From assembly GCA_037379345.1 (NCBI GenBank), contig CM074524.1, positions 28,206,750-28,270,749 on the forward strand: a stretch of 64,000 nt of DNA, in the 5' to 3' direction. This document shows, piece by piece, positions 4,419 to 63,060 of the stretch. Under the pieces are notes generated by a model. It did no database searches, had not been told where the DNA came from, and saw only the letters and a list, made by a program, of their open reading frames with translations. Source of the DNA: Perna viridis. Its lineage: Eukaryota. The translations under genes and the position numbers were made by a program. How positions within the stretch are numbered: the stretch's first letter is position 1; each line of letters begins with the position of its first letter.

Positions 4419-6790
4419 CTGAAAATAGAAGATTTATGATTTACATGTAAATGAACACAAATGAACAACTGGTGAATTACTGTCAATTTAGTATTTTTCA
4501 TGGTGAACTAATTTACTTTTTATACAATTGACAAATAATCCAAAAAAATAGAACCTTAATTTTTTTTATACACTATGAATAACTATTAATGATTTTTTAA
4601 AACAATTCCCAAACTAATACCTGTAAATATGTTCAGTACATAAGCAACAGTGAAAAATACATTTTCAGCATTTTAATGAATCAAGGGAACCAGGCTTGAA
4701 ATAGTAATCAAAAGATTATAAGTTCATTGATGATGATGACAGGGTAAACAGACAAACAAAAAAACAAAAGAACATGAAATACCCAAAAAACACATACAAG
4801 AAAACAAAAGTAAATAACAAGGACTCAGTTAAAAACTGGGAGCTTGAACCAAGTGTGCAGGTGGGGTAACATACTCTGCTTTTCTAGAAGTACCCACCAA
4901 GTTGCTCATAAAATGTCACATCCGCGATAGACCAATAAATTAAACAAATCTAATTTACTTAATTTGGTTTAGTTATGACTATAATTATCAGGGTTTTGTC
5001 CTATGTTCAACCTCCCATACACATACTTCCTTTTCCAGAGTTAAAGATTGAGAATCAGATACTAGTACATTATGTACATGTAGTTGCCTGATCTAAGATC
5101 TGTACAAGCCTGTTACCACATGTGATCACAAGTTATCATGAAAATACTATGGCATTTAAATTTTGCTGAAGTCAACCATAAAAACTTAGAGTTTTTATAC
5201 AAGAATGACGAATTTAGGTCATGTCAAGTCATAACTTTCTTAATTGACATTCTATCAGCCCATTGATTTTAATATCAGTTTTTAATTTGATATTAATTGA
5301 CTTATTATATGTATACCGGCACTTCAATTTATAACTGATAAAAACTTCAGGAGTAATCATAGTACATTTATTATAACTATTTACTGCATTCTAAGGAAAT
5401 ATCAGGTGCATTGATACATATCTAATGCTTATATGAATGATTAAAAAATAGTCAATTATTTCAAAATACATTAATACACTCCATTAAGCAATAAAGGTTC
5501 TTAGCAGCTTATTTTCCATCCATCAACCAAGACAAAATTATCACCTATATAGACCATTAAGATTATATAAGCAGATAATACAACAATCATTTATATAAGA
5601 TTTGCACCTTTAGATAACGATATAAAACAGCTGTTCCAGGTAAAACTTTACAGCTGATTAGACAGAACTACTATAATCCTTTATAGACAGTTTGTATAAC
5701 TGATGAGTAAGACTCCACTGTATGTACTTTATAGGCAATGCTTTATAGTGAGAGAAATGTCACTGATAACAGTGACCAGGTGTTAATCATAACAAAGCCA
5801 AACAGAATGGATCATGTCATGTAACAGGGGCTGATTATGAGTCAGGATTACTAAGATTTATATAAAATCAAAGGCTGGTCAAGGATTTCAGGCTGTGAAA
5901 CAGAAATAAAAACCAAATGTATAATGAGCCAAGATCATTTTGTGGTTAAATTTGTGCAATATGTGTGTGCAAAATCAAGATTCCATGCAAAAAAAAAATA
6001 AAACTACATGTAACTTTTAGATTCCAGGGGTCAAAATGCTGTTTCTAACCCACCCAAAAATGAATCAATGCCTGAACATGCAGATATATATTTTTAATCG
6101 GATGACCATATATATACGTATCAATTCTCAAATTAACAGATTCTGTCAATTCTTAAGTTATTTATTTTCAGATTGTTTCATTTAAATCTTAAAAATATTG
6201 GATACTTGCTTCTTTAAGATAAGGTTTTTATTTGACATTTTTTCTTGCAATTATTCTTCAAATAGAAAATGGCAGAGATTAATACATAACATTGAATTAC
6301 TTTTGTTTTTTAGTTTTTAATTCATAAATATTACACACATTTAAATTTCTTTTCCTGATAGACCCTCAGAATACCTTTTACCAAAACTATCATACAGTAT
6401 TAACGTGACCAAATCACTGCGTAGAATGAAACATATTTCAATTGACCTTGGAATATTGATTTGTTTAAATAATTTCCTACATGTAAATGCTACTTTTAAA
6501 AACAGTCTCAATATTGCACAAATAAATGAGTCACCAATTATATATCTATAAATCTGGACCACATCTGTGTTACAGTCAATAGTGTTTCCTTCCTCTCAAA
6601 CAAAGCCTGTCTTAAGATTTGGATTGTTTTTGTCTTTTTTGTCAAGTGTATCCCATTAATGTTAAAGATAAATGAATCACAAACATTGATTTCCTAGAAA
6701 TTAAATATAATGACATTTCCTTTCAGTAATAGACAAGCACAAATGTAAAAATAGACTTGGTAACTGTAGCCCTGTTAAAGGTCAATTATA

Positions 6791-35778: not shown

Positions 35779-38133
35779 AGGTGTACAATTCTTGTGGTGA
35801 CCTCTGAAAGTATTTACCATTTTGTATTTAGGTTCTATGCTGGTGCATTTGTTACGTTTCACCATATCTATTCTTTTTCTATTCCAACTTCCACAGGGAA
35901 GATCTCCCTTATAATGTTTAGTCTGTTTAGAGGAAAATCTTTACTCAACAAGTTTTGTTTATTATGTCAAATGAATTACCAGCTGATTAAACAACAGTAC
36001 ACCTCTTTGACCATTTTATTACTAATTAAAATTGTTTCATTGCACAATGCGAGAAAATGTGTCGGCTATCTTTTTTTTTTTAGAGATAAAACTTGTTCCT
36101 TATTCTGTGGAATTTCAGAAAGAAGCGTTCAATATTGATGATGTGATATTAAAGATATTGACTTTCAAAAGTTTCCGTGGGTCAAAGTGGAAGGACGACT
36201 CGTCATTAGAGTCTACGTAAGTATCATCTAATGTATGGTCGTTGAAAGGCCACAAACTATATTTTTGCAGTATTTAGCCAACATGAAACTATAACATACA
36301 TTATAGATAGAAAGAAACTTACAGTTCATGAATTGATCCGAATAAAAGACTCCCATTAAGAGTTTTGCACTTGAAAGTTTAAAAAAATAGCAGTTTTGTA
36401 GTTTTTGGCTCATACATTGAATGGACCACAACATATGTACTGAATATTCTTCTATTCCTGATATTGTAAGGCGATGTAATGAGTTCCAGGCCTCTAGTTT
36501 ATATCGATATTTAATTACTTTTGTTTGTGGGTCTTTCGGATCTTACTTAAAGGTGTGTTTACATTTATTGAAGACATTTTGGTGAACTCTGGAAGTATTT
36601 ACTTTTTTGTATTTAGGCTATACGCTGGAGCATGTATCGTTTCACCATATTCGTTTTTTTCAAATGGTTAAAAAAGTTAATCAAATTTAAAAAAAAAAGT
36701 ATAGAATGTATACATTACTTATACTCTGTCTCCGATCAAACTAATACTAGAACTACTGAAAAAATGGTGGCACCAAAATCACTGGATAGAAATGTTTGCT
36801 CCAAATAAATTGTTTTTTTTTTTTTTTTTTTTTTTTTTTGGGGGGGGGGGGGTAGACAAAGTCGGAAATGATTATATTCGCTTTAATTATTGACTGTTAA
36901 TTTTAGAATTAGTGGGTGGGGAGGAAACAACTTTTTGTTTGATGCAATGCTAATTTTGTTCTGTGTTGTTAAACATTTCGATTATTAAAAATTGTGAATT
37001 TTCACTGAATTATACTTTGCCACCAGTACCCTTGACCTGTGCATACTAAGGAAAAAACACAGGAAAATATGTTCTTTTTTAATTGCCGTTTCCATCCCTG
37101 CAAAATGCAAGCGCATACAATGCAAGCATACATGGTTGAAGTTATGTAGGCGTACTGTCAATAGCATAACTTTCTAATAGCGAGTACTTAATAAGAACAG
37201 GAAGCACTTTGATAACGATAAAGTAATCAATTATATTACTCTCTTCAAGGTTCATAAATACTTTTTCGGCAAATATGGCATAAATTAACCACAATTTTTG
37301 TTTTGTTATATATTATTGTGGTGCAGTTCGCAGGTTGGTTACCTGATAGCTACATATAACTAATCTGCATAAGACACAAGGATTTCATTACTGGTCTTAC
37401 TAGAAATTACACAGAGGCGGTCATCCAACGAACTCATAATTTTAATCTTTTTGAATTGGACAAAGTTCCTATTTGTTATATAAAGCATCGTACTTGGTGT
37501 TTGGACAGTCCAAAAAGCTGCTTCGCCTGCTCCGGACACAAGGATATAGCAATTTGATCCTTGAAGCCCTTCGCAACTCAAAAATGGCAATGTTCATTTG
37601 AGTTATTTTAATAACTGAATACAAATAGCTATCCTCCTCTAGGATATATCACCCTCGACGTCACAATATATCACACTCTCGTATTCAGTATAATATAACA
37701 CATACCGCCTGTAGTAGAGGGTCTTACTAGGGTGTTTCTAGGAAAGCAAAGGACACTTCCACTACCGGTGCACCTCGTCCATGCTCCCAGTTTTTATTGG
37801 AGTCCGAGTTGCTCATTTACTTTTGTTATTTTATATGCATTATTTTCGTTATTTTATCTTCTTTGTTGTGTGTGTCTGTTTAACATGTCTGGTCATTGTC
37901 CCTGTATTACATTCTTTTGATTTCCGCTATAATCTTGGTTCCCTTGATTACTCTTACATTGTTGGTAACAAAAACACTCTGGTCTTGATGAATAACAACT
38001 GTGTTTATAATCTTATAGTAGCGTCTATGTAGTATAGACGACGAGGTGGTATATAATGAACCTTGGACGTTATTATAGAATATTCTTATGTTGATATCAA
38101 GTTGATTTGAAGAATATCATAATTGAAACTTAC

Positions 38134-43859: not shown

Positions 43860-46800
43860 AATAAGGAAAGTTGCCAGAGATGAAAGAAAAATTAACAATA
43901 CGGAATGAAAAGTCATCGCATTTGTCATATAGTTTGGTCAGTAGTTTTCTTTTACCATCAATCTCTAAATGAAGGTTAAGATATGAGTCGGACTTCACAG
44001 TGTCTAAAGTTTCCTTTATCTCAAGACCTTTGGGGTAGATGCAAGGAAAAAAATCCCAAATCCCCCAAACTAGGATTGTCTAATGATAATACGTCTTATG
44101 TTCTTAATTGCAAAATCAAACGAACATAGACTATTTATAAATTAAACACAAACACAGTGTTTGGATATTGGCTCGCCTTACAGTGCAGTAAAACTTTATT
44201 TATTAAATTAAAAAAATAAGGTATAGTCCATGAAACTGTCTGCCTAGGCTGCATAAAAATAATAAAACAAACAATATACAAAAGAAAACATTTTGTTAAA
44301 TATCAACCTAAAACAATACTGACATTGTTTAAGTAAAAAAACTCTGTATGAAAGGCAACCGTCGAATACTTAATGCTACTTTCTAGAGTTGACCGTTACA
44401 ACTATTCCCGCTAAAATATCATTTAACATCCATGCCTTAAACCACAAGGCTCATTTACATACATGTATACATTTAAATACTATAATAAACAAACACGTGT
44501 TTATTGTAACATTTATAAATGTGTATATATGTAGTGTGCCCGTATTAGATTTTATGTGTTGTTTTTATTAAATTTGATTTAATAAATATTTATTTGCATT
44601 TGAAATGTACAATTCCATTTCAGATTATTAACTAAACTTTGAATTTGCAGCCTCTATATGTACAAACATGTACATGTATATTATCATGTATATGTGTTGT
44701 TTTCTTGACAACTAATTGTTTTATCATATTTCAGAATGATTATGATTATTTTATATGATTTGTAAATTAATCATTCTTATCTTTATTTCAGCTAAATAAT
44801 TACTTTATATACCCGTGCAGGTCCGGATGTTAAAAGAATAGGCCTGCAGCAGCGCTAAGCTTGTCGTAAAAGGCGACTAAATAGTGTTCAGAACCCTAGC
44901 CGGGGGCTAGGGCGCTCTGCCCACAGAGCAACTGGGATGTGTGCCCCAGGTGGTGGAATGGGGTACCTCTGGCGTGTTACATGCTGGGGTTGTCAGGCTA
45001 TAATACGGAAAACCTGACCGCAAACCATAGTGGTGCACCGTGTTGGGAAAGATGCCACGTTCCTCGCACGTTAAAGAACCCTACTGTGGTATTCTCCCGG
45101 AGTAGGAACCATAGGGCTCCGCCACAGGAGGCTGAATTGCCCGACCCTATCCACCTCTCCCTATTTCCAGTGGCAATCAAAATTTGTCGACCCCATTGTC
45201 CTTGTGTCCCATCCCTTTCTCATTTCATCAATTCATGTTCATTTTATCATCAATTTCATGTTCATTGTCTGAATATAGCTGAAATATTGCTGCTCGGACG
45301 TTAAACCCCAACAAACAAACAAACAAACTAATTACTTTATTATTTTATATCACATAGACAATTAATACTACATTTAATTGCAGGTAAACTTGGTCGTTGT
45401 TGACTGAGTTAGTGAGGTGTTTTTATCCTTGTTTTTCACTTTGTATGTTTAGTGTTATTCTAATTAGAACACTTTAACCTGTCTTCTGTTTATCCTTATT
45501 TGGGAATACTTTTTGGCTATTTGTATAAACCTCAAGGTTATAACCATATATAGACATGGTAAGTTTTTCTAATTTAAATATTAAGACATTTTGAGTAGTC
45601 TTATGTTTAATGTCTAGTTCTATATGGTTTTTGTATTTGCTTTATAAACTGTGCATTTTTAAAACTTGTATTACAAGTGTTTGTTGTAACTGAAATGATT
45701 TCATATTTCATTTTCAAAGTTATTAATTTGATGCAATTTATACCTAATGTCTATGTATTATGACAATATATGAATACATGCTTCTATTTATATTTTTGTT
45801 TCTTTGTAGTTGGTGTTTACATTTAGCATTCAATAAATAATTAAAGAATCCTAGAAACGACTTCCGTATTTGTGTCTTACGAAAGCCTGATACAGTAGTG
45901 GAAACTGAGATTAAAATATATAGCTAAACGACGCTTCTTCTTTTGGATCAAATCAGCAATAACTTCAGCCTCATTAGAGTGAAGGAATAGGCCAGCAAAT
46001 AGAGGAGAACGACATGTCCGATATGGAATGCGGACCTTTGGTTGAAAAACGCGTTCACCACACTGGACAAATATGTTGTCGAAAAAATTATAGCATTTTG
46101 GTATATTTGTAAGATGGCTTTGAATAGTTTTTTTGCTTTTTATGAGCAACTCAGTGGGTGTTTCTAGAAAAGCAGAGGACGCTTACTCTACCGGTGCACC
46201 TGGTCCATGCTCCCAAATTTTAGCGGAGTCCGATTGCTCATTTGCTGTGTTTACTTCGTATGTATTATTTTATTCACTTTATGTTCTTTGTTGTGTATGT
46301 CTGCTTTCCATGTCTGGTCTTTGTCCCTGGATTACATTCTTTTGATTACCGCTATAACCTTGGTTCCCTTGATATATATTTGGAAGATGATTTGGAATTA
46401 TTTCTTGCAAAGTATGATGCATCTCTACCAAGATCTACATATTTACCCACTCCGACAGTGAATCAACGTCTTCTTGTTCTCTTTCTATCCATTTCTATCC
46501 ATGCATAGTCGTCCACGCCATTCATAAGAACTTTTTTAAGTTATATAATTATAATTCCAATTTATAAAGAAAGGACCTTAAGGAGAGATTTGTTTTCGAT
46601 GATGTTTAAATCTCCCGCGATGACTACATTTGAATTGATACTTTTTGCAAGAGCGGTCAGGTGGTTTAATGGTGTATTTTGCCAAGAATACCAACTTTCA
46701 TAGAGAGAATTAAATGATCGTTTGATAAAACTGTTGATAAAGTATCGGGGATATGATGGTACTAATTTCCGAACGATGACCGCACATTTGTTCGTTTAAT
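43860..46800 (-). mobile_element. Fragmented Penelope-like retroelement RT interrupted by younger insertions
   Basis: Minus-strand pieces in RT order: GDLNIIENK...DYA...REQEDVDSLSEW (about 46400-46640); FDNIFVQCGERVFQ...SPLFAGLFLHSNE (45890-46130); IYPKGLEIK...SYLNLHLEID...TKLYDKCDDFSFRIVNF (43860-44060). Confidence 0.75.
44809..45328 (+). mobile_element. Short non-autonomous retroposon (SINE or bipartite-LINE type) with (AAAC)n tail and 12-bp TSD
   Basis: TSD TAATTACTTTAT at 44797-44808 and 45329-45340. GC-rich body, ending ggacgttaaaccccaa(caaa)n. No obvious tRNA head. Confidence 0.9.
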
Positions 46801-52378: not shown

Positions 52379-52760
52379 CGTTTTAATAAGAAAGGAGAGA
52401 ACGGAAAGAAAGGCTTTTACGGGGGATAAATTCTAATTTTGATTTTAGAAGTTAAATTATAAGGATTATTTTTGGCAAAGTTATGCTAGCATAACCAAAT
52501 TTGGACAGTTCACGCTTGTTTGCGGTTCATGAAGCGCAAACTGTCTTAAAGTTGTTTATGTAATCTATAAATTTTATATTTAATACACTTTGACAATATT
52601 TTACTCCATTTAAAAACGCTGAGTAGCTGATAAATAATTTTAGTATTACTGTTGTTATAATTTGCATACGTTTACTCTTTCCCGACATAGTTTTACGTAA
52701 TTTTCGCGCGTTCTCAATATTTTTTTATATTTTAGGTAGAAGAGCCGGAAGAGTACTGAT

Positions 52761-54062
52761 ATGGAAAACAGTAGTTCTACATCTTCAAATGCAACAAATT
52801 ACCCAATGTGCAGCTACAAAATTACCGAGGGGGTTTTCCTAGAAAGCGCAAATGATACTATATTCAAAAGCATTTACCTTCCTAGTTTTATATTGACATT
52901 GATAATGCTACTGATTGGTGGACCAGGGAATTCCCTTGTATTCTATATATATTTTGCAAAATGGCGAAAGACGACCGCCCGCATTTTTATTCTCGCTCTC
53001 GCGGGATTTGATATGATGAATTGTTTCTTCACCATGCCCATGGAATTGACTGTATTGGCAAATATCATTATGTTTGATATTGGACCAGTATGCAAAGTAT
53101 TTCGCTATATCACTTTCATGATGAACAATGGTTCATCAGTAATTCTGGCAGGAATTTCAATTGACAGATACATTCGCATCTGTATGCCTTTGAGGGTTCA
53201 ACTACAACCATCTCATGCAAAGAGAGTTGTTATTTTAGCACTGGTCTTGTCAGTATTATTTGCATGGCCGGCATTGTTAATGTACGGAATCCAAACTTTA
53301 CAGTTCCCGGTTCCAGGAAAGCCACATATATGCATCATTGGAAAGACATGCTTGTACGAGGAAGAATACATGAATACCGACTATCCCCTTATATTTACAA
53401 TGGTTTTACTGATCGGCACTTTATTAATCGATATTTGCATGATAGTGCTGTATTCGATGATTGGGTATCAGGTTATTCAGCGTGGTAATGCCATTGAGCC
53501 CGCGCCTTCGACTAAATGGCGGAAAGGAAGCACATCGACAGAAAACACAGATGACGGGATCATTATATCTCCTACAAGAAATGACGACGATTCAGGCAAG
53601 CCTCTACATAATTCTAATGATATTTTTCCAAATAACGAACCAACAATTTACATTCCAAGAACGTCAGAAAGACCCAAGAAAAAAGTGGTGAAACAATCAA
53701 GCGCACAATCGATGAAGCGCGACGCATTCCGGCAGAGGTCACTCTCTGTATCGAGCATTGAAACACGCCGGGCACAGATGTATAAGACGACTCTGATGCT
53801 GTTTATGGTCACGATACTCTTTATGGGATCATTCATTCCATATTGTGTCATAAGCATCATCCGGGCACTCAACAAAAATTACTACACAAATTTAAGTACA
53901 TCTGGAAAAGCTGTGTACAACTTGTTTTTGCGAACGTACATGTTGAGTTCTTCTTTGAATCCTGTTATCTATTGCTTTCTAAGTGTGCAGTTTAGAAACG
54001 AGTGCAAAGCCTTGTACAAGCAACTAAAACTCTTCTTTTCTAGAAAAGGTTCGACTCGATGA
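52761..54062 (+). CDS. Rhodopsin-like (class A) orphan GPCR, 433 aa, paralog of 33819-35072
   Basis: Same motifs (GPGNSLV, LAGFD, IDRY, AWP, LNPVIY) and long blocks identical to the other GPCR. Acceptor ttttag ends at 52735. AATAAA at about 54453. Confidence 0.95.
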   Translation: MENSSSTSSNATNYPMCSYKITEGVFLESANDTIFKSIYLPSFILTLIMLLIGGPGNSLVFYIYFAKWRKTTARIFILALAGFDMMNCFFTMPMELTVLANIIMFDIGPVCKVFRYITFMMNNGSSVILAGISIDRYIRICMPLRVQLQPSHAKRVVILALVLSVLFAWPALLMYGIQTLQFPVPGKPHICIIGKTCLYEEEYMNTDYPLIFTMVLLIGTLLIDICMIVLYSMIGYQVIQRGNAIEPAPSTKWRKGSTSTENTDDGIIISPTRNDDDSGKPLHNSNDIFPNNEPTIYIPRTSERPKKKVVKQSSAQSMKRDAFRQRSLSVSSIETRRAQMYKTTLMLFMVTILFMGSFIPYCVISIIRALNKNYYTNLSTSGKAVYNLFLRTYMLSSSLNPVIYCFLSVQFRNECKALYKQLKLFFSRKGSTR

Positions 54063-58158: not shown

Positions 58159-58519
58159 ACAATCTTTTTGTACTTTGATACACATTGTTGTACTTTACTA
58201 TTGTTTCCTTAAAACTTGTTATGATTCGTCTATATTTTGCTATTATACTCCTATAGTTTGTAAATACTTGTCTACGAATAATTTACATATAGCTAAAAAT
58301 AACTGACCCATAACCACTTATCAGTACACGTGCATCTCTGGAGGCAAACCATTATCAGTAGCCACATAATGCATAAAAGAATCAGTCATGATCATGATTA
58401 ACATATTGTTTAATTGTAGATGAGATTTTTCAAGACCCTTATGGATCGACAAGTGACTTGACAAATAATGTGAATAAATGACCAGATATGTTATCCTTGT
58501 ATTTACAAATATTTTCTTG

Positions 58520-58890
58520 AAACGTCATGTTTTTATGGTCGTCATCATGAACTCGTGGATCGTTATGGTGTATCCATCAACACCATGAAAACTGATGTAT
58601 TCAACGGATCATGGTTTTCCTTTCCTCGTTTGTCTACCCCGGACTTGACTTTTTATGAGCAACTCGGCGAGTGTTTCTAGAAAAGCAGAGGACGCTTACC
58701 CTACCGGTGCACCTGGTCCATGCTCCCAGTTTTTAGTGGAGTCCGAATTGCTCATTTACTTCTGTTACTTTGTATGTATGATTTTAGTTACTTTATGTTC
58801 TTTGTTGTGTATGTCTGTTTTCCATGTCTGGTCTTTGTTCCTGGATTACATTCTTTTGATTACCGATATAACCTTGGTTCCCTTGATTAC
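58520..58890 (+). mobile_element. 3' end of a Penelope-like element (ORF end plus ~230-bp terminal repeat)
   Basis: FYGRHHELVDRYGVSINTMKTDVFN followed by atgagcaactcgg...ttggttcccttgattactc. The same repeat occurs at 37725-37955 (+), 46135-46372 (+), 32170-32310 (+, partial), 4800-4915 (-) and 31320-31405 (-), with a diverged variant at 60260-60360. Confidence 0.8.
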
Positions 58891-61800
58891 TCTTTTACTC
58901 AAGAGTAGAAATCAATATCTAAAATTATCAGATGGATACCACTATTTTGTTCTTGGTCATATTCCAGCCAGTGTCATTTCTTTCCAGGCGCGAAGATTTA
59001 TGTGTATTTGAAAGAGGATATGTTATATGTACCTTGACTGCATTTGTAGAACATAGATACGATCAAAATAAACTCCTTACTTAGGAGCATGCTTGCTAAT
59101 ATCATTACTGCAAAACTTTTACGATTGTAATTACAATTTGAAAGACCAATATGAAGTTTCTTTATTATAGGGGGGGGGGGGGGTAAGATATCTTCAGTTA
59201 AATTTCATGTCTGACCGAAATGACAACTTGACATTAACATGTACATATCCTAGCATAGCAGGATATTCTACCACTACTGGCTATATTATGTGATATAATA
59301 TTGCATAGTGTTTTGTGTGTGTGTTTTCTTGTTTTCCTTATCTTCTATTTTAATAGATACGGTTAACGTATTTTATTCTATTGTCTACATTGTGAATGAA
59401 GATTATCTCTGCTTCATGTTTTCGCGGTTGAGCCATATACTTGGGTGTTGATGTCTCTCTATTGCTATTTTGAACCTATTTCATAATAGGCTCTGTATTA
59501 GGTTAGTAAATTCAATAAAAAAAAAAATAACTCGTAAAATGTTATTTAGACATGTTAGCCTTAATGAATGAATGTTACATTTAAGTAAGGATAGCCTGTT
59601 AAAAAATAATTGACACAATGTGGTAATTTAGTAGCCTTTTAATCAGCCTTTAATTACAGATTTATCATTATTTGTTATTGTTGTTATTCTTTATTTACTA
59701 TTTTTTTCAACGACATTTATCTACAAACAATTTCGTATTGTGTGCCAAGAATAAAAAAAAAACATTTAAAATACAGTTGTGATTTATAAATATAACTGCA
59801 ACGCCATATCAAAATAAACTAGATTTTGTCCCATTAATCCCGTCGATCTCTGCAATGTTTTGCGCTGCTATTGCACTCTACATAATACCCAGTCTATTGG
59901 CATTCAAGGTGAAATATGTATACTGAGAGAAATATTGGTTTTAAGTTAAATGAGCCAAAAAGGTAAACGGCTATATCATACATCAATGGATAATATTTTA
60001 TTTATATTTCATTTGTATTCCTCTTTACCTTTAAAATGTGGCTATGTTCACTTAATCATTATTCTTATTTACGTGTAATTTGAGCCAATTCACAACATAT
60101 CTTATTTTCATATACAAAATGAAAGTGTTAAACTTTAAAATGTATATAAAATATTCTTTTCTGAATTTGAAAATTTGTCTATTATACCGCCTACGGTAGC
60201 CTTGTAAAACGTGATTTTTTAATAGGATCTTTTTGTGACAGTCTATTACCAGACTCTCACTTGCAATATGATGGGTGTCGCTGACGGCGCAGGACATGCT
60301 TACCCTCCAAAGCATCTGAGTCACTCCCGCTTTTTGTTGGCGTTCATATTGCTAATGCTATATTTTATGTGTTACGTCATGTTCAGTTCTTATATGCAAT
60401 ACATTTTATTCGGTTATTGGGAATATTAGGTCTGTTGTTTTTATATGAAACTCTCTACTTCAAAACGTCTTTCTTTTCTTTATTTTAAGAAGCAGTTTTT
60501 ACAAAAATCAGAGAGGAGACGATTCATGCATGACAAAAACATTCTAAATTCAGTTTTATTTCACACAGTTTCTGATCACATAACAAGTCTTAGTTTTTCA
60601 TTTCGGTGTTGCAATTATGAGATAGAATTTGTATAAATTGTACACGAAATTAGTACTCTGCAATAGTCATTGTTCTGGATTTGCTTTAATCTTGTTGGTT
60701 TTAGTTGGAGATAAATGTATGATTTTCTCAAATGTACAGATATGAATGCAAAAAACTTATTTTTCCCCAAAATATAGCATCTGAAGATCGAAGAAACATG
60801 TTTGTTAATTGGGTTATTCTACATCATGAATCACCTGTATCATAGGCAGTGTCTGAAATTGATATGGACTGGTACTTAATTATTTTGTTTAGCGATTCAC
60901 ACATAAAAGTAAGTGTGATAATTCTTTAATACGAATCTTGAATCCTTTATCCATCATTGTATTCATTACAAATCTATAATGGTGTTTTGGTGTTTAGTTT
61001 TTATATATCTCCTGGGCCAAAGTATTTTGCTTTAAAAATAATTTACAAAACAGGCACGATTTAAGTTCAATGCTTCTACGAAAAACGGTATTTTTGGAAA
61101 TTGGAAATGGCCAAAGGCAGATAACTCAGCCACATTAAACATCATTAGACACAATGAAGATCATCGAGTTATGTTTGGACATTTAATGATTTAACTTTTA
61201 AACCAATTTGTTTCGTTCCATGCGGTGGATTTATTTCGCAACTCCACAAAATATTGGCCAAATATAAGAAAGTTCGATACAAACGTATCGGCATTTCATG
61301 CATTACCTTGCCAAACAGATTCAAATCAACGCGCAAGACTTTTGACGTCCTCAGGCAAGGCCTTATCTGATCATATATTATCTTGCCAATATTATATATT
61401 TTCCAAATACAGAGTTTTTGCTCTTCCTCTTTTTATTTTTATTTCTATTTGTAATTTTTTACACTTGTTTGTTACCAGTAGTTGCCGATTTTGACTGACG
61501 GTTGACGATATATGATGCATGATTAATACATGGGATAAACAAATCAAAAAGTCATGCACAAACACAAAAAGCATCAAACAAACATAAGGAAGTTACCTTT
61601 GTTTAACATAGGAACGGTTATGGTAACCATAGGAATTGTCTTACTAATGTTTTGTATTTGTAACTTGAATCGAAAAATTGTGTCACCAAAAGCACTTTTG
61701 TTGATGATTTGATCAAAACATATATGTAATTATAACCATACATTTGAAATACCAAGTAAACAATGCTGCCTCTGAAACATAATCTAAATCTGTTAGCTAT

Positions 61801-61941
61801 AGTGATATATTATGTATATATATTACAAAAACAAATTATCGTTCTTGATTTCGTTGAATTAGGTTGCTTTTAGCAGGAGGATAAAGTGCGATTTTCTCTT
61901 AAGTAATTTCTGTAATAAGGAAAGGACTATTATCACATAAA

Positions 61942-63060
61942 AGAGTAATCAAAGGAAGCAATATTCTAGCGGAAATCAAAGGAATGTAATCCAGGGACAA
62001 AGACCAGACATGGAAAACAGACCATCACAACAAAGAACATAAAGTAACTCAAACAATACATGCAAAGTAACAAAAACAAATGAGCAACTCGGACTCCACT
62101 AAAACAAAGAATATGGACCTAGTGCACCGGTAGAGTAAGCGTCCTCTGCTTTTCTAGAAAAACCCACCGAGTCCGCGGTAGACAAAATAGAAAGGGAAAA
62201 CTATGACACGTTAAGCAAATCAGTATTCATGGGGCTGATGGATACATGTTTGGAGTATGAAGTGTTGTGGTAGAACTGGAGACTCTCTTTGAGATCTGTG
62301 AAAGAGTAATCAAGGGAACAAAGGTTATAGTATTGAAGTTAAAGGTTTTGAAAGAACTTTCGTGGTACTTTTTTAGATTAGCTATATAACGTTGTTTGTA
62401 TGGATTCCTGTGGAGTTTAGAAATTCAGTACATAGACGGTAAATCACAATCATCGTCCTTGGTAGAGAGACCAAAAGAGGACAACACAGATTTATGGTTT
62501 ATGGTTTTCCTCTATCTCTTCGTTGGAGAGTGTAGTAGTAGTATAGGTCTTATACCTGCTATTATTTTCTACGTCGACATTTTACAGACTAAATCAATGT
62601 TGTTTTGGGTTTTGTTTGTCTGGACGACAACATATGTTATGTATAGAAGACAATGTTTCTGCTACACCGGGGTCTTTCAAAACTGATGTAGCATTGACAC
62701 TTATTGACCCACTTTAAACTTTCATTCGTTTCAAAATTAAAGACCTCACGGCCTTTACTCACTCCGACAAAGAATCAATGTCTTCTTGTTCTCGTTTTAT
62801 CCATTTTCTTGCGTAATCCTCCACGTCATCCATAAGAATTTTACAGTTATAACATATGTAGGCTAAAACAGCACCGTTTTTTTCGTTGGGTTTTTCTTTC
62901 CAATGAATCATTTTACCATATGCAGTGTCCAAATGTATGTAGACTAGTACTTAAAAGGACTGTGTAACGTCTGCAAACCTTTTTTAACGTGTTGGGATTC
63001 CAATGCTGTAGGAAGGAAAAATCACGAAGTCTAGGTACCGTATGCCCTTTGAATAAGCAG
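61942..63060 (-). mobile_element. Penelope-like element: N-terminal RT fragment plus 3' terminal repeat
   Basis: Minus strand ILMDDVEDYARKWIKREQEDIDSLSE*...NNIDLVCK...LPSMY*ISKLHRNPYKQRYIA (62330-62850), followed by the family 3' repeat at 61942-62250. Confidence 0.75.

Follow-up and report, generated by a model that had tools for sequence, protein, structure and literature searches.

We found that the 3′ untranslated region (3′ UTR) of Naiad Penelope-like retrotransposons carries a structured motif with two independent palindromes that covary through their centres. The motif, identified in a window of 64,000 nucleotides from Perna viridis, is real and conserved across phyla. Two copies of the RNA very probably pair with each other through these palindromes. 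The motif is thus very probably a dimer-gated module, and on comparative grounds we tentatively propose, at somewhat less than an even chance, that the paired form cleaves itself. The first-pass annotation of this DNA had described a set of hairpins and missed the main signal, namely the two palindromes covarying through their centres and the sequence CACCYG as a second partner of the conserved CGGGUG strand.

The motif and its host element

From 5′ to 3′ the motif consists of an outer stem, CGGGUG, a 10-nt palindrome, the segment CAG-N5-GCU-YACYC, a palindrome of 6 to 8 nt, CACCYG and a hairpin (Table 1). The copy analysed here shares 96% identity with positions 343-706 of a 706-nt 3′ terminal stretch from a tandem Naiad locus. 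The first-pass annotation had correctly placed the outer stem, with 12 of 13 pairs formed and the single C·A of this copy being paired in other copies, the palindrome TTTCTAGAAA and the GCTCC/GGAGT hairpin. It had also recognized that the diverged copy possesses a different and perfect outer stem (60263-71/60344-52), and its estimate of at least seven full or partial copies in 64 kb agrees with the seven motif-bearing copies that we counted (six of family A, one of family B). The case for structure rests on comparison, because the lone copy folds only modestly better than shuffled sequences (z of -1.94 on the plus strand and -2.73 on the minus strand). The stretch is covered by four runs, available only as contigs and uncertain in type, that carry no end or strand information.

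Table 1. Parts of the motif copy and other related copies in the 64-kb window
Feature	Position	Strand	Basis or remark
5′-truncated Naiad copy, family A: C-terminal remnant of the reverse transcriptase (RT) and whole 3′ UTR	58531..58894	+	sequence comparison
RT C-terminus remnant (FYGRHHELVDRYGVSI...)	58531..58614	+	translation; long copies end alike
Outer stem P1, 5′ arm	58655..58667	+	family-variable sequence
CGGGUG strand, conserved	58668..58673	+	here CGAGTG (decayed base); pairable with CACCYG (6 bp) or YACYC (5 bp)
10-nt palindrome TTTCTAGAAA	58674..58683	+	predicted intermolecular helix 1
AG-CAG-N5-GCU segment	58684..58696	+	CAG and GCU conserved; weak optional hairpin; candidate core
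YACYC, conserved	58697..58701	+	alternative GGGUG partner
Palindrome ACCGGT, 6 nt (other families 6-8 nt)	58703..58708	+	predicted intermolecular helix 2
CACCYG, conserved	58710..58715	+	predicted CGGGUG partner, stacked on P1
Hairpin P6, variable	58722..58742	+	adjoins P1 3′ arm
Outer stem P1, 3′ arm	58743..58755	+	
Decayed motif copy, older Naiad family B	60263..60352	+	majority palindromes CCGCTGGCGG and TCCGGA
Family A truncated copy	61941..62246	-	motif with internal deletion; short ORF remnant
Family A truncated copy	46132..46373	+	motif whole
Family A copy	37730..37955	+	truncation inside motif
Family A copy, decayed	31325..31438	-	
Family A copy, decayed	4679..4935	-	
Family A 3′ tail alone	32156..32308	+	motif absent

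The host of the motif is a Naiad Penelope-like element (PLE), in agreement with the initial assignment to a Penelope-like 3′ end. Naiads are diagnosed by a CX2-5CxxC finger, an N-terminal GIY-YIG domain before the RT and a DKA motif (PMC8557442). In long copies the sequence continues upstream as an ORF that encodes a CX4CxxC finger (KCGIKNCKTC), a GIY-YIG domain (LIYGLEC..YVGET) and then the RT, and the DKG to DKA change is present (ADKAQNN). Pfam detected GIY-YIG at residues 70-108 followed by RVT_1 at 399-464, both under the curated cut-off. The full element is 3,385 nt long (L274:1942-5326) and follows a 706-nt duplicate of its 3′ end, the usual pseudo-LTR. This locus fits the Naiad body plan, with its size within 3.4-4.4 kb, its partial tandem and the 5′ truncation of family A copies. 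At the extreme 5′ end of Naiads lies a conserved long hairpin (L274:1950-2000, core CTGCTGGTGGA..TCCCCGAG), also found in the published Sglo, Tgra, Mgal, Bpla and Mphi entries and more diverged in Anas. It occurs in lineages with either of the two 3′ motifs described below and is a candidate protein-binding or RT start signal.

The distribution of copies was analyzed in 80 arbitrarily placed 10-kb stretches (800 kb) of this genome. Among 90 copies, 73 end at one fixed 3′ end while the 5′ ends are staggered, and at least 20 nt of ORF are retained in 38 of the 55 copies with a whole motif. A distance of 139 nt separates the motif from the fixed 3′ end, and most inserted copies contain it. Extrapolation from the 66 copies that cover the core gives about 60,000 per genome; one exact 17-mer occurs 8,976 times in this genome and its reversed control 0 times. 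Family B copies also have staggered 5′ ends, and the RT C-terminus was found at the same place in 3 of 25 further loci (L363, L367, L370), the RT remnant lying about 850 nt upstream of the motif in L367 and L370, the two of these loci in which the motif was located. The RT was not reached in 36 of the 39 family B loci oriented first, and two nearby RT matches lay outside the shared sequence of those copies. The fixed 3′ end, the staggered 5′ ends and the linkage to ORF and RT show that the repeat consists of 5′-truncated retrocopies and not of a separate element. The stand-alone spread suggested at first was therefore rejected, and with it a non-autonomous repeat of SINE or retrozyme-like type, neither a discrete 5′ end nor an ORF-independent tandem unit being present.

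Ten family A fragments share a start base 57 nt from the 3′ end, in contrast to the staggered starts elsewhere, and may be terminal tail repeats. A third family of this genome (L318:963-1017, minus strand, and L048) has the 10-mer TCTTGCAAGA. The window also contains two ORFs without introns, 417 and 440 aa long, related and GPCR-like by eye (33819-35072, minus strand; 52740-54062, plus strand), and LINE-type reverse transcriptase fragments unrelated to Naiad (26699-27739, minus strand).

String searches of the published Naiad consensi (PMC8557442 supplement), read by eye, revealed the same layout in at least 12 of 54 entries, a lower bound on account of broken lines. These come from a hydrozoan, bivalves, hemichordates and fish (two Clytia, CGi, Sglo, Olur, Tgra, Pmar, four hemichordate and one fish), the taxon of the two Clytia, of two hemichordate and of the fish entries being assigned by file order. 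Furthermore, a pattern with both palindromes left as N and the invariant bases written in matched at least 122 loci in metagenomes, none in viral contigs and five in prokaryote genomes. Four of these five are chance-like; the fifth (L217) is a Naiad fragment in a bacterial record, a 407-nt contig that resembles by eye the 3′ end of the published Naiad_Pmar and is likely animal DNA contamination. The RT fragments of the metagenomes are about 40-69% identical to family A, and for 14 metagenome loci without RT the host element is putative.

Clustering, on the flanks only, of 127 pattern matches among those listed gave 27 representatives, and three families of this genome are among them; 16 are RT-linked or from this genome, and 11 have no RT in the fetched flank. 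Seven bacterial-looking chance matches, judged post hoc by eye and record title, were left out, as were the decayed singletons L105, L185 and L203 of large mussel-type clusters. Six bacterial-looking chance matches served as negative controls, and none of the six was palindromic. Since the pattern fixes the invariant bases, counts of these bases are circular, and independent support comes from the published consensi and the families of this genome only.

Covariation of the palindromes and folding of the motif

The 27 representatives contain 24 distinct 10-mers, and complementarity at the pairs 1-10, 2-9, 3-8, 4-7 and 5-6 holds in 22, 23, 24, 23 and 23 of them. The central, adjacent pair is Watson-Crick in 21 and G-U in 2 of the 24, with the dinucleotides AT (12), TA (5), CG (2), GC (2), TG (2) and TC (1) at the centre. 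None of 200,000 column shuffles, which like our other shuffle tests do not model the kinship of the sequences, attained any of the observed pairing values. The 10-mer is self-complementary to the centre in all RT-linked families, and wholly so in 16/16 representatives that are RT-linked or from this genome. Likewise, the centre of the second palindrome can pair in all 19 distinct spacers (p about 1e-4, the null also being given the better of two registers). The covariation suspected in the first-pass annotation is thus real: in a MAFFT alignment, pair counting showed that 8 of 8 palindrome pairs change on both sides, with a covariation score of 0.646 against 0.200 after shuffling and at most 0.185 after sliding. 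Both palindromes are intact by eye in 12/12 published consensi, as illustrated by the exchange of CCTAGG (CGi) for CCATGG (Sglo). As exceptions, L146 breaks the 10-mer, and L100, L175 and L191 carry an outer mismatch in the 6-mer.

Neighbouring bases of one strand are unable to pair with each other. Because complementarity is selected at the adjacent central bases, which cannot pair within a hairpin, we infer that the pairing takes place between copies. Of the three functions guessed at first, "dimerising" is the one to which these complementary centres point. In isolation, the 10-mer is predicted to form a hairpin in only 8 of 28 cases (mean -0.3 kcal/mol), while the predicted duplexes reach -13.5 kcal/mol for self-pairing against -2.5 kcal/mol across families. 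Such pairing would be family-specific, since the palindromes differ between families and cross-family duplexes are poor.

Cofolding of the whole motif gave a modest effect: the native dimer was more stable than the palindrome-shuffled one in 20 of 29 sequences (-9.1 versus -7.2 kcal/mol). The best cofolded dimers used at least 7 pairs of the 10-mer in 17/29 and the 6-mer in 4, and that of the window copy used neither palindrome, with a program that cannot represent both contacts as kissing loops.

Within one copy, an outer stem of unrelated sequence, in some cases short or distant, directly adjoins CGGGUG in 26 of 29 sequences, a count that has no null control. Ensemble prediction (probability ≥0.5) paired CGGGUG with CACCYG in 23/29, versus GGGUG with YACYC in 1/29, so that CACCYG is a better predicted partner than the TACCC of the first-pass annotation. 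Both pairings vary just between G-C and G-U, and a two-sided change is found in neither. In a single RNA, folding predicts coaxial stacking of the CGGGUG/CACCUG helix with the outer stem, and the loop closed by this helix would contain both palindromes. A CAG/CUG pseudoknot, in columns fixed by the search pattern, was considered as a further possible contact. As one strand has two conserved partners, these data suggest a switch, perhaps upon dimer formation. The AGC/GCU hairpin that had also been drawn shows no compensatory change and has lost its middle pair in 5 of 28 rows; we consider it optional.

A twister-like motif in the sister lineage, and known systems

In the available 3′ UTR sequences of the published Naiad_Mgal, _Bpla, _Mphi and Naiad-1_Movir, the double-palindrome motif is absent. 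By eye, these four show a twister-like sequence whose P1 contains a palindrome. In this genome the 19-nt core of the twister-like motif has 540 exact occurrences, and the motif lies shortly downstream of a Naiad-like RT in most of 25 loci (L324-L348; e.g. L333:1441-1518). The RT beside it is about 50% identical to that of family A. A quick RT tree with midpoint root, built from 34 rows of this analysis's sequences alone, separates twister-like from double-palindrome rows by one change (SH-aLRT 99). For a decayed twister-like copy, the best match among 4227 Rfam families was full-length Twister-P5 (RF02684), a weak one of 15.4 bits (E of 0.3 with 126 nt searched), under the gathering score of 37.6. 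No Twister-P5 match was obtained in 20 loci searched jointly, nor genome-wide. The sister-lineage motif is possibly a dimeric twister, as judged from sequence likeness. If the sister motifs are twisters, Naiads would fill one position with alternative palindrome-bearing modules, much as other PLEs do with presumed dimeric hammerheads (PMC4209133, PMC6765202); reasoning from replacement in such a slot earlier yielded the pistol, hatchet and twister-sister classes (PMC10085705). Six near-identical copies of a twister-like Naiad locus lie 23-51 kb apart (L332-L337, C1:11.0-11.2 Mb), a spacing that probably reflects a large tandem segmental repeat. In the available Acropora Naiad entries (PMC8557442 consensi), neither 3′ motif was found. 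Their 3′ ends have GAAA and CTGATGA boxes near the end and are possibly permuted hammerheads.

The comparison with Rfam that had been proposed at the outset gave no match to the motif. Rfam 15 returned 0 matches on 58500-58950 at E≤10, and neither a ribozyme nor another credible match on the motif came up when the window, the copy itself, full-length elements and 20 other-family loci were scanned; in L215 a weak snoRNA match of 21.6 bits (gathering score 50) overlaps the motif. As stated in the first-pass annotation, no hammerhead core is present: CTGA-N-GA is absent from the copy and CTGANGA..GAAA from the full element. Membership of the hammerhead class was rejected on the absence of the catalytic boxes CUGANGA and GAAA, the inter-copy palindrome being a likeness of logic only. 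By eye, against consensus sequences, no match was found to the HDV-like, twister, twister-sister, pistol, hatchet and hairpin cores, and a reading as SECIS element was dropped on inspection by eye. A literature search, with subscription journals, Dfam and Repbase outside its scope, retrieved no description of the motif or of its twister-like counterpart. The motif thus appears undescribed; the host clade is known, and there are analogues of its likely mode of action, the pairing of retroelement RNA through palindromes.

The dimer initiation sites of retroviruses are self-complementary, lie in the 5′ leader and join two genomic RNAs. Minimal dimeric hammerhead ribozymes were reportedly the subject of Lunse et al. 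2017. The minimal dimeric hammerheads of PLE pseudo-LTRs (Cervera and de la Pena 2014, PMC4209133; PMC6765202) share with the Naiad motif the class of position and the logic of palindromes pairing between copies. They differ in their conserved bases and topology and in the hammerhead core, which is lacking here, and they have one short stem-III loop in place of two palindromes of 10 and 6-8 nt. Type-P5 twister (RF02684) is comparable through the sister lineage, where a P5-like motif with a palindromic P1 takes the same slot, whereas the double-palindrome motif has no twister core. PAL1 and PAL2 of Ty1 (PMC6844567) are also self-complementary sequences joining two retroelement RNAs; these signals lie in the 5′ leader of an LTR element with Gag particles, while Naiad is Gag-less and has two independent palindromes in one junction of its 3′ UTR. 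The Naiad clade itself, as defined by Craig et al. 2021 (PMC8557442), agrees with our element in the N-terminal GIY-YIG, DKA, a length of about 3.4 kb, the pseudo-LTR, 5′ truncation and high copy number in a bivalve-type genome. For this clade the absence of canonical hammerheads is reported, and the available part of that source leaves the 3′ UTR motif and its twister-like alternative undescribed, though both are in its supplementary sequences.

Self-cleavage or a dimer signal

In other PLE clades, hammerheads are thought to be dimeric via a palindromic stem III (PMC4209133, PMC6765202), and Naiads are without canonical hammerheads (PMC8557442). The explanation that we favour is that the Naiad motif does the job ascribed to these hammerheads. 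Two copies would pair, either within one tandem transcript, between its upstream pseudo-LTR and its 3′ UTR, or between two transcripts, and would form one 10-bp helix and one 6-8-bp helix. During pairing, YACYC may replace CACCYG on GGGUG. The invariant CAG, GCU, AC and CAC bases would then form a putative catalytic site, which would cut tandem transcripts to unit length. The motif would then be a natural self-cleaving ribozyme of a new structural class, one whose activity requires a dimer held by two palindromic helices, a proposal that the comparative data leave a little short of evens. No accumulation of 5′ ends was found in the motif: 29 of 149 copies start inside it, with a maximum of 2 per base. 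A cleaved linear template is thus not seen, the 5′ ends being spread without a cleavage hot spot, and templates that are cut would need either re-ligation or a low frequency.

A serious contender, which we place second, is a non-catalytic signal for RNA dimer formation and protein loading. The palindromes would pair two RNAs, or both ends of a tandem transcript, and the invariant bases would bind the Naiad protein; this pairing could position a second template for RT jumps, giving rise to the partial tandems and inverted copies that characterize these elements. The palindrome evidence fits this explanation equally, and the 5′ ends show no cleavage footprint. The location of the motif close to the fixed 3′ end, and its retention in most inserted copies, also favour such a signal. 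Moreover, palindromic dimer signals are required for dimer formation and mobility of Ty1 RNA (PMC6844567), and the protein of the Poseidon PLE is predicted to be dimeric (PMC11167929). However, a non-catalytic signal alone leaves unexplained the twister-like motif in the same slot of the sister lineage. Many copies begin within or 3′ of the motif, an observation compatible with either model.

The initial model of a monomeric multi-hairpin RNA, with the palindromes as ordinary hairpins, is improbable. P1 and P6 are indeed ordinary intramolecular stems, and the outer 3 bp of the 10-mer could close a hairpin, predicted at a probability of at least 0.87 in 2 of 29 sequences. Yet a hairpin leaves the central bases free and does not constrain them, and they are complementary in 23 of 24 10-mers, through five different dinucleotides. 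The palindrome TTTCTAGAAA, first taken for a hairpin, is instead conserved through its centre, and ACCGGT, assigned at first to an ACCGG/CTGGT hairpin, is itself a covarying palindrome whose centre is pairable in every spacer. Slightly less credible still are dyad-symmetric sites in double-stranded DNA that a dimeric protein would bind, be it the endonuclease, the RT or a host factor acting on the promoter in the pseudo-LTR: symmetry spanning the centre is what dimeric DNA-binding proteins select and promoters are located in PLE pseudo-LTRs (PMC6765202), but the sites sit within strand-specific stems and are wholly different between families, and departures from pairing are mostly G-U on the sense strand (4 G-U and 0 A-C in the available consensi; 11 and 3 among the distinct fetched sequences, decayed singletons included), which indicates the RNA level since G-T and A-C are equivalent in double-stranded DNA.

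Among the Penelope-like elements of many invertebrates, Naiads reach the highest abundance, and the clade is noted for its absent hammerheads. The motif, of about 100 nt and spanning phyla, is a candidate for what replaces the hammerhead in Naiads. If it does not cleave, it would be an RNA dimer signal in an LTR-less and Gag-less retroelement, for which no precedent was found in our literature search, and would offer a handle on the origin of pseudo-LTR tandems in the sister group of telomerase. If it does cleave, it would constitute a new ribozyme class in animal genomes. A Naiad ribozyme would then span cnidarians to fish with tens of thousands of copies in a single genome, and Naiad lineages would have swapped between the double-palindrome module and a palindrome-bearing twister, which would explain why hammerheads are absent from them.
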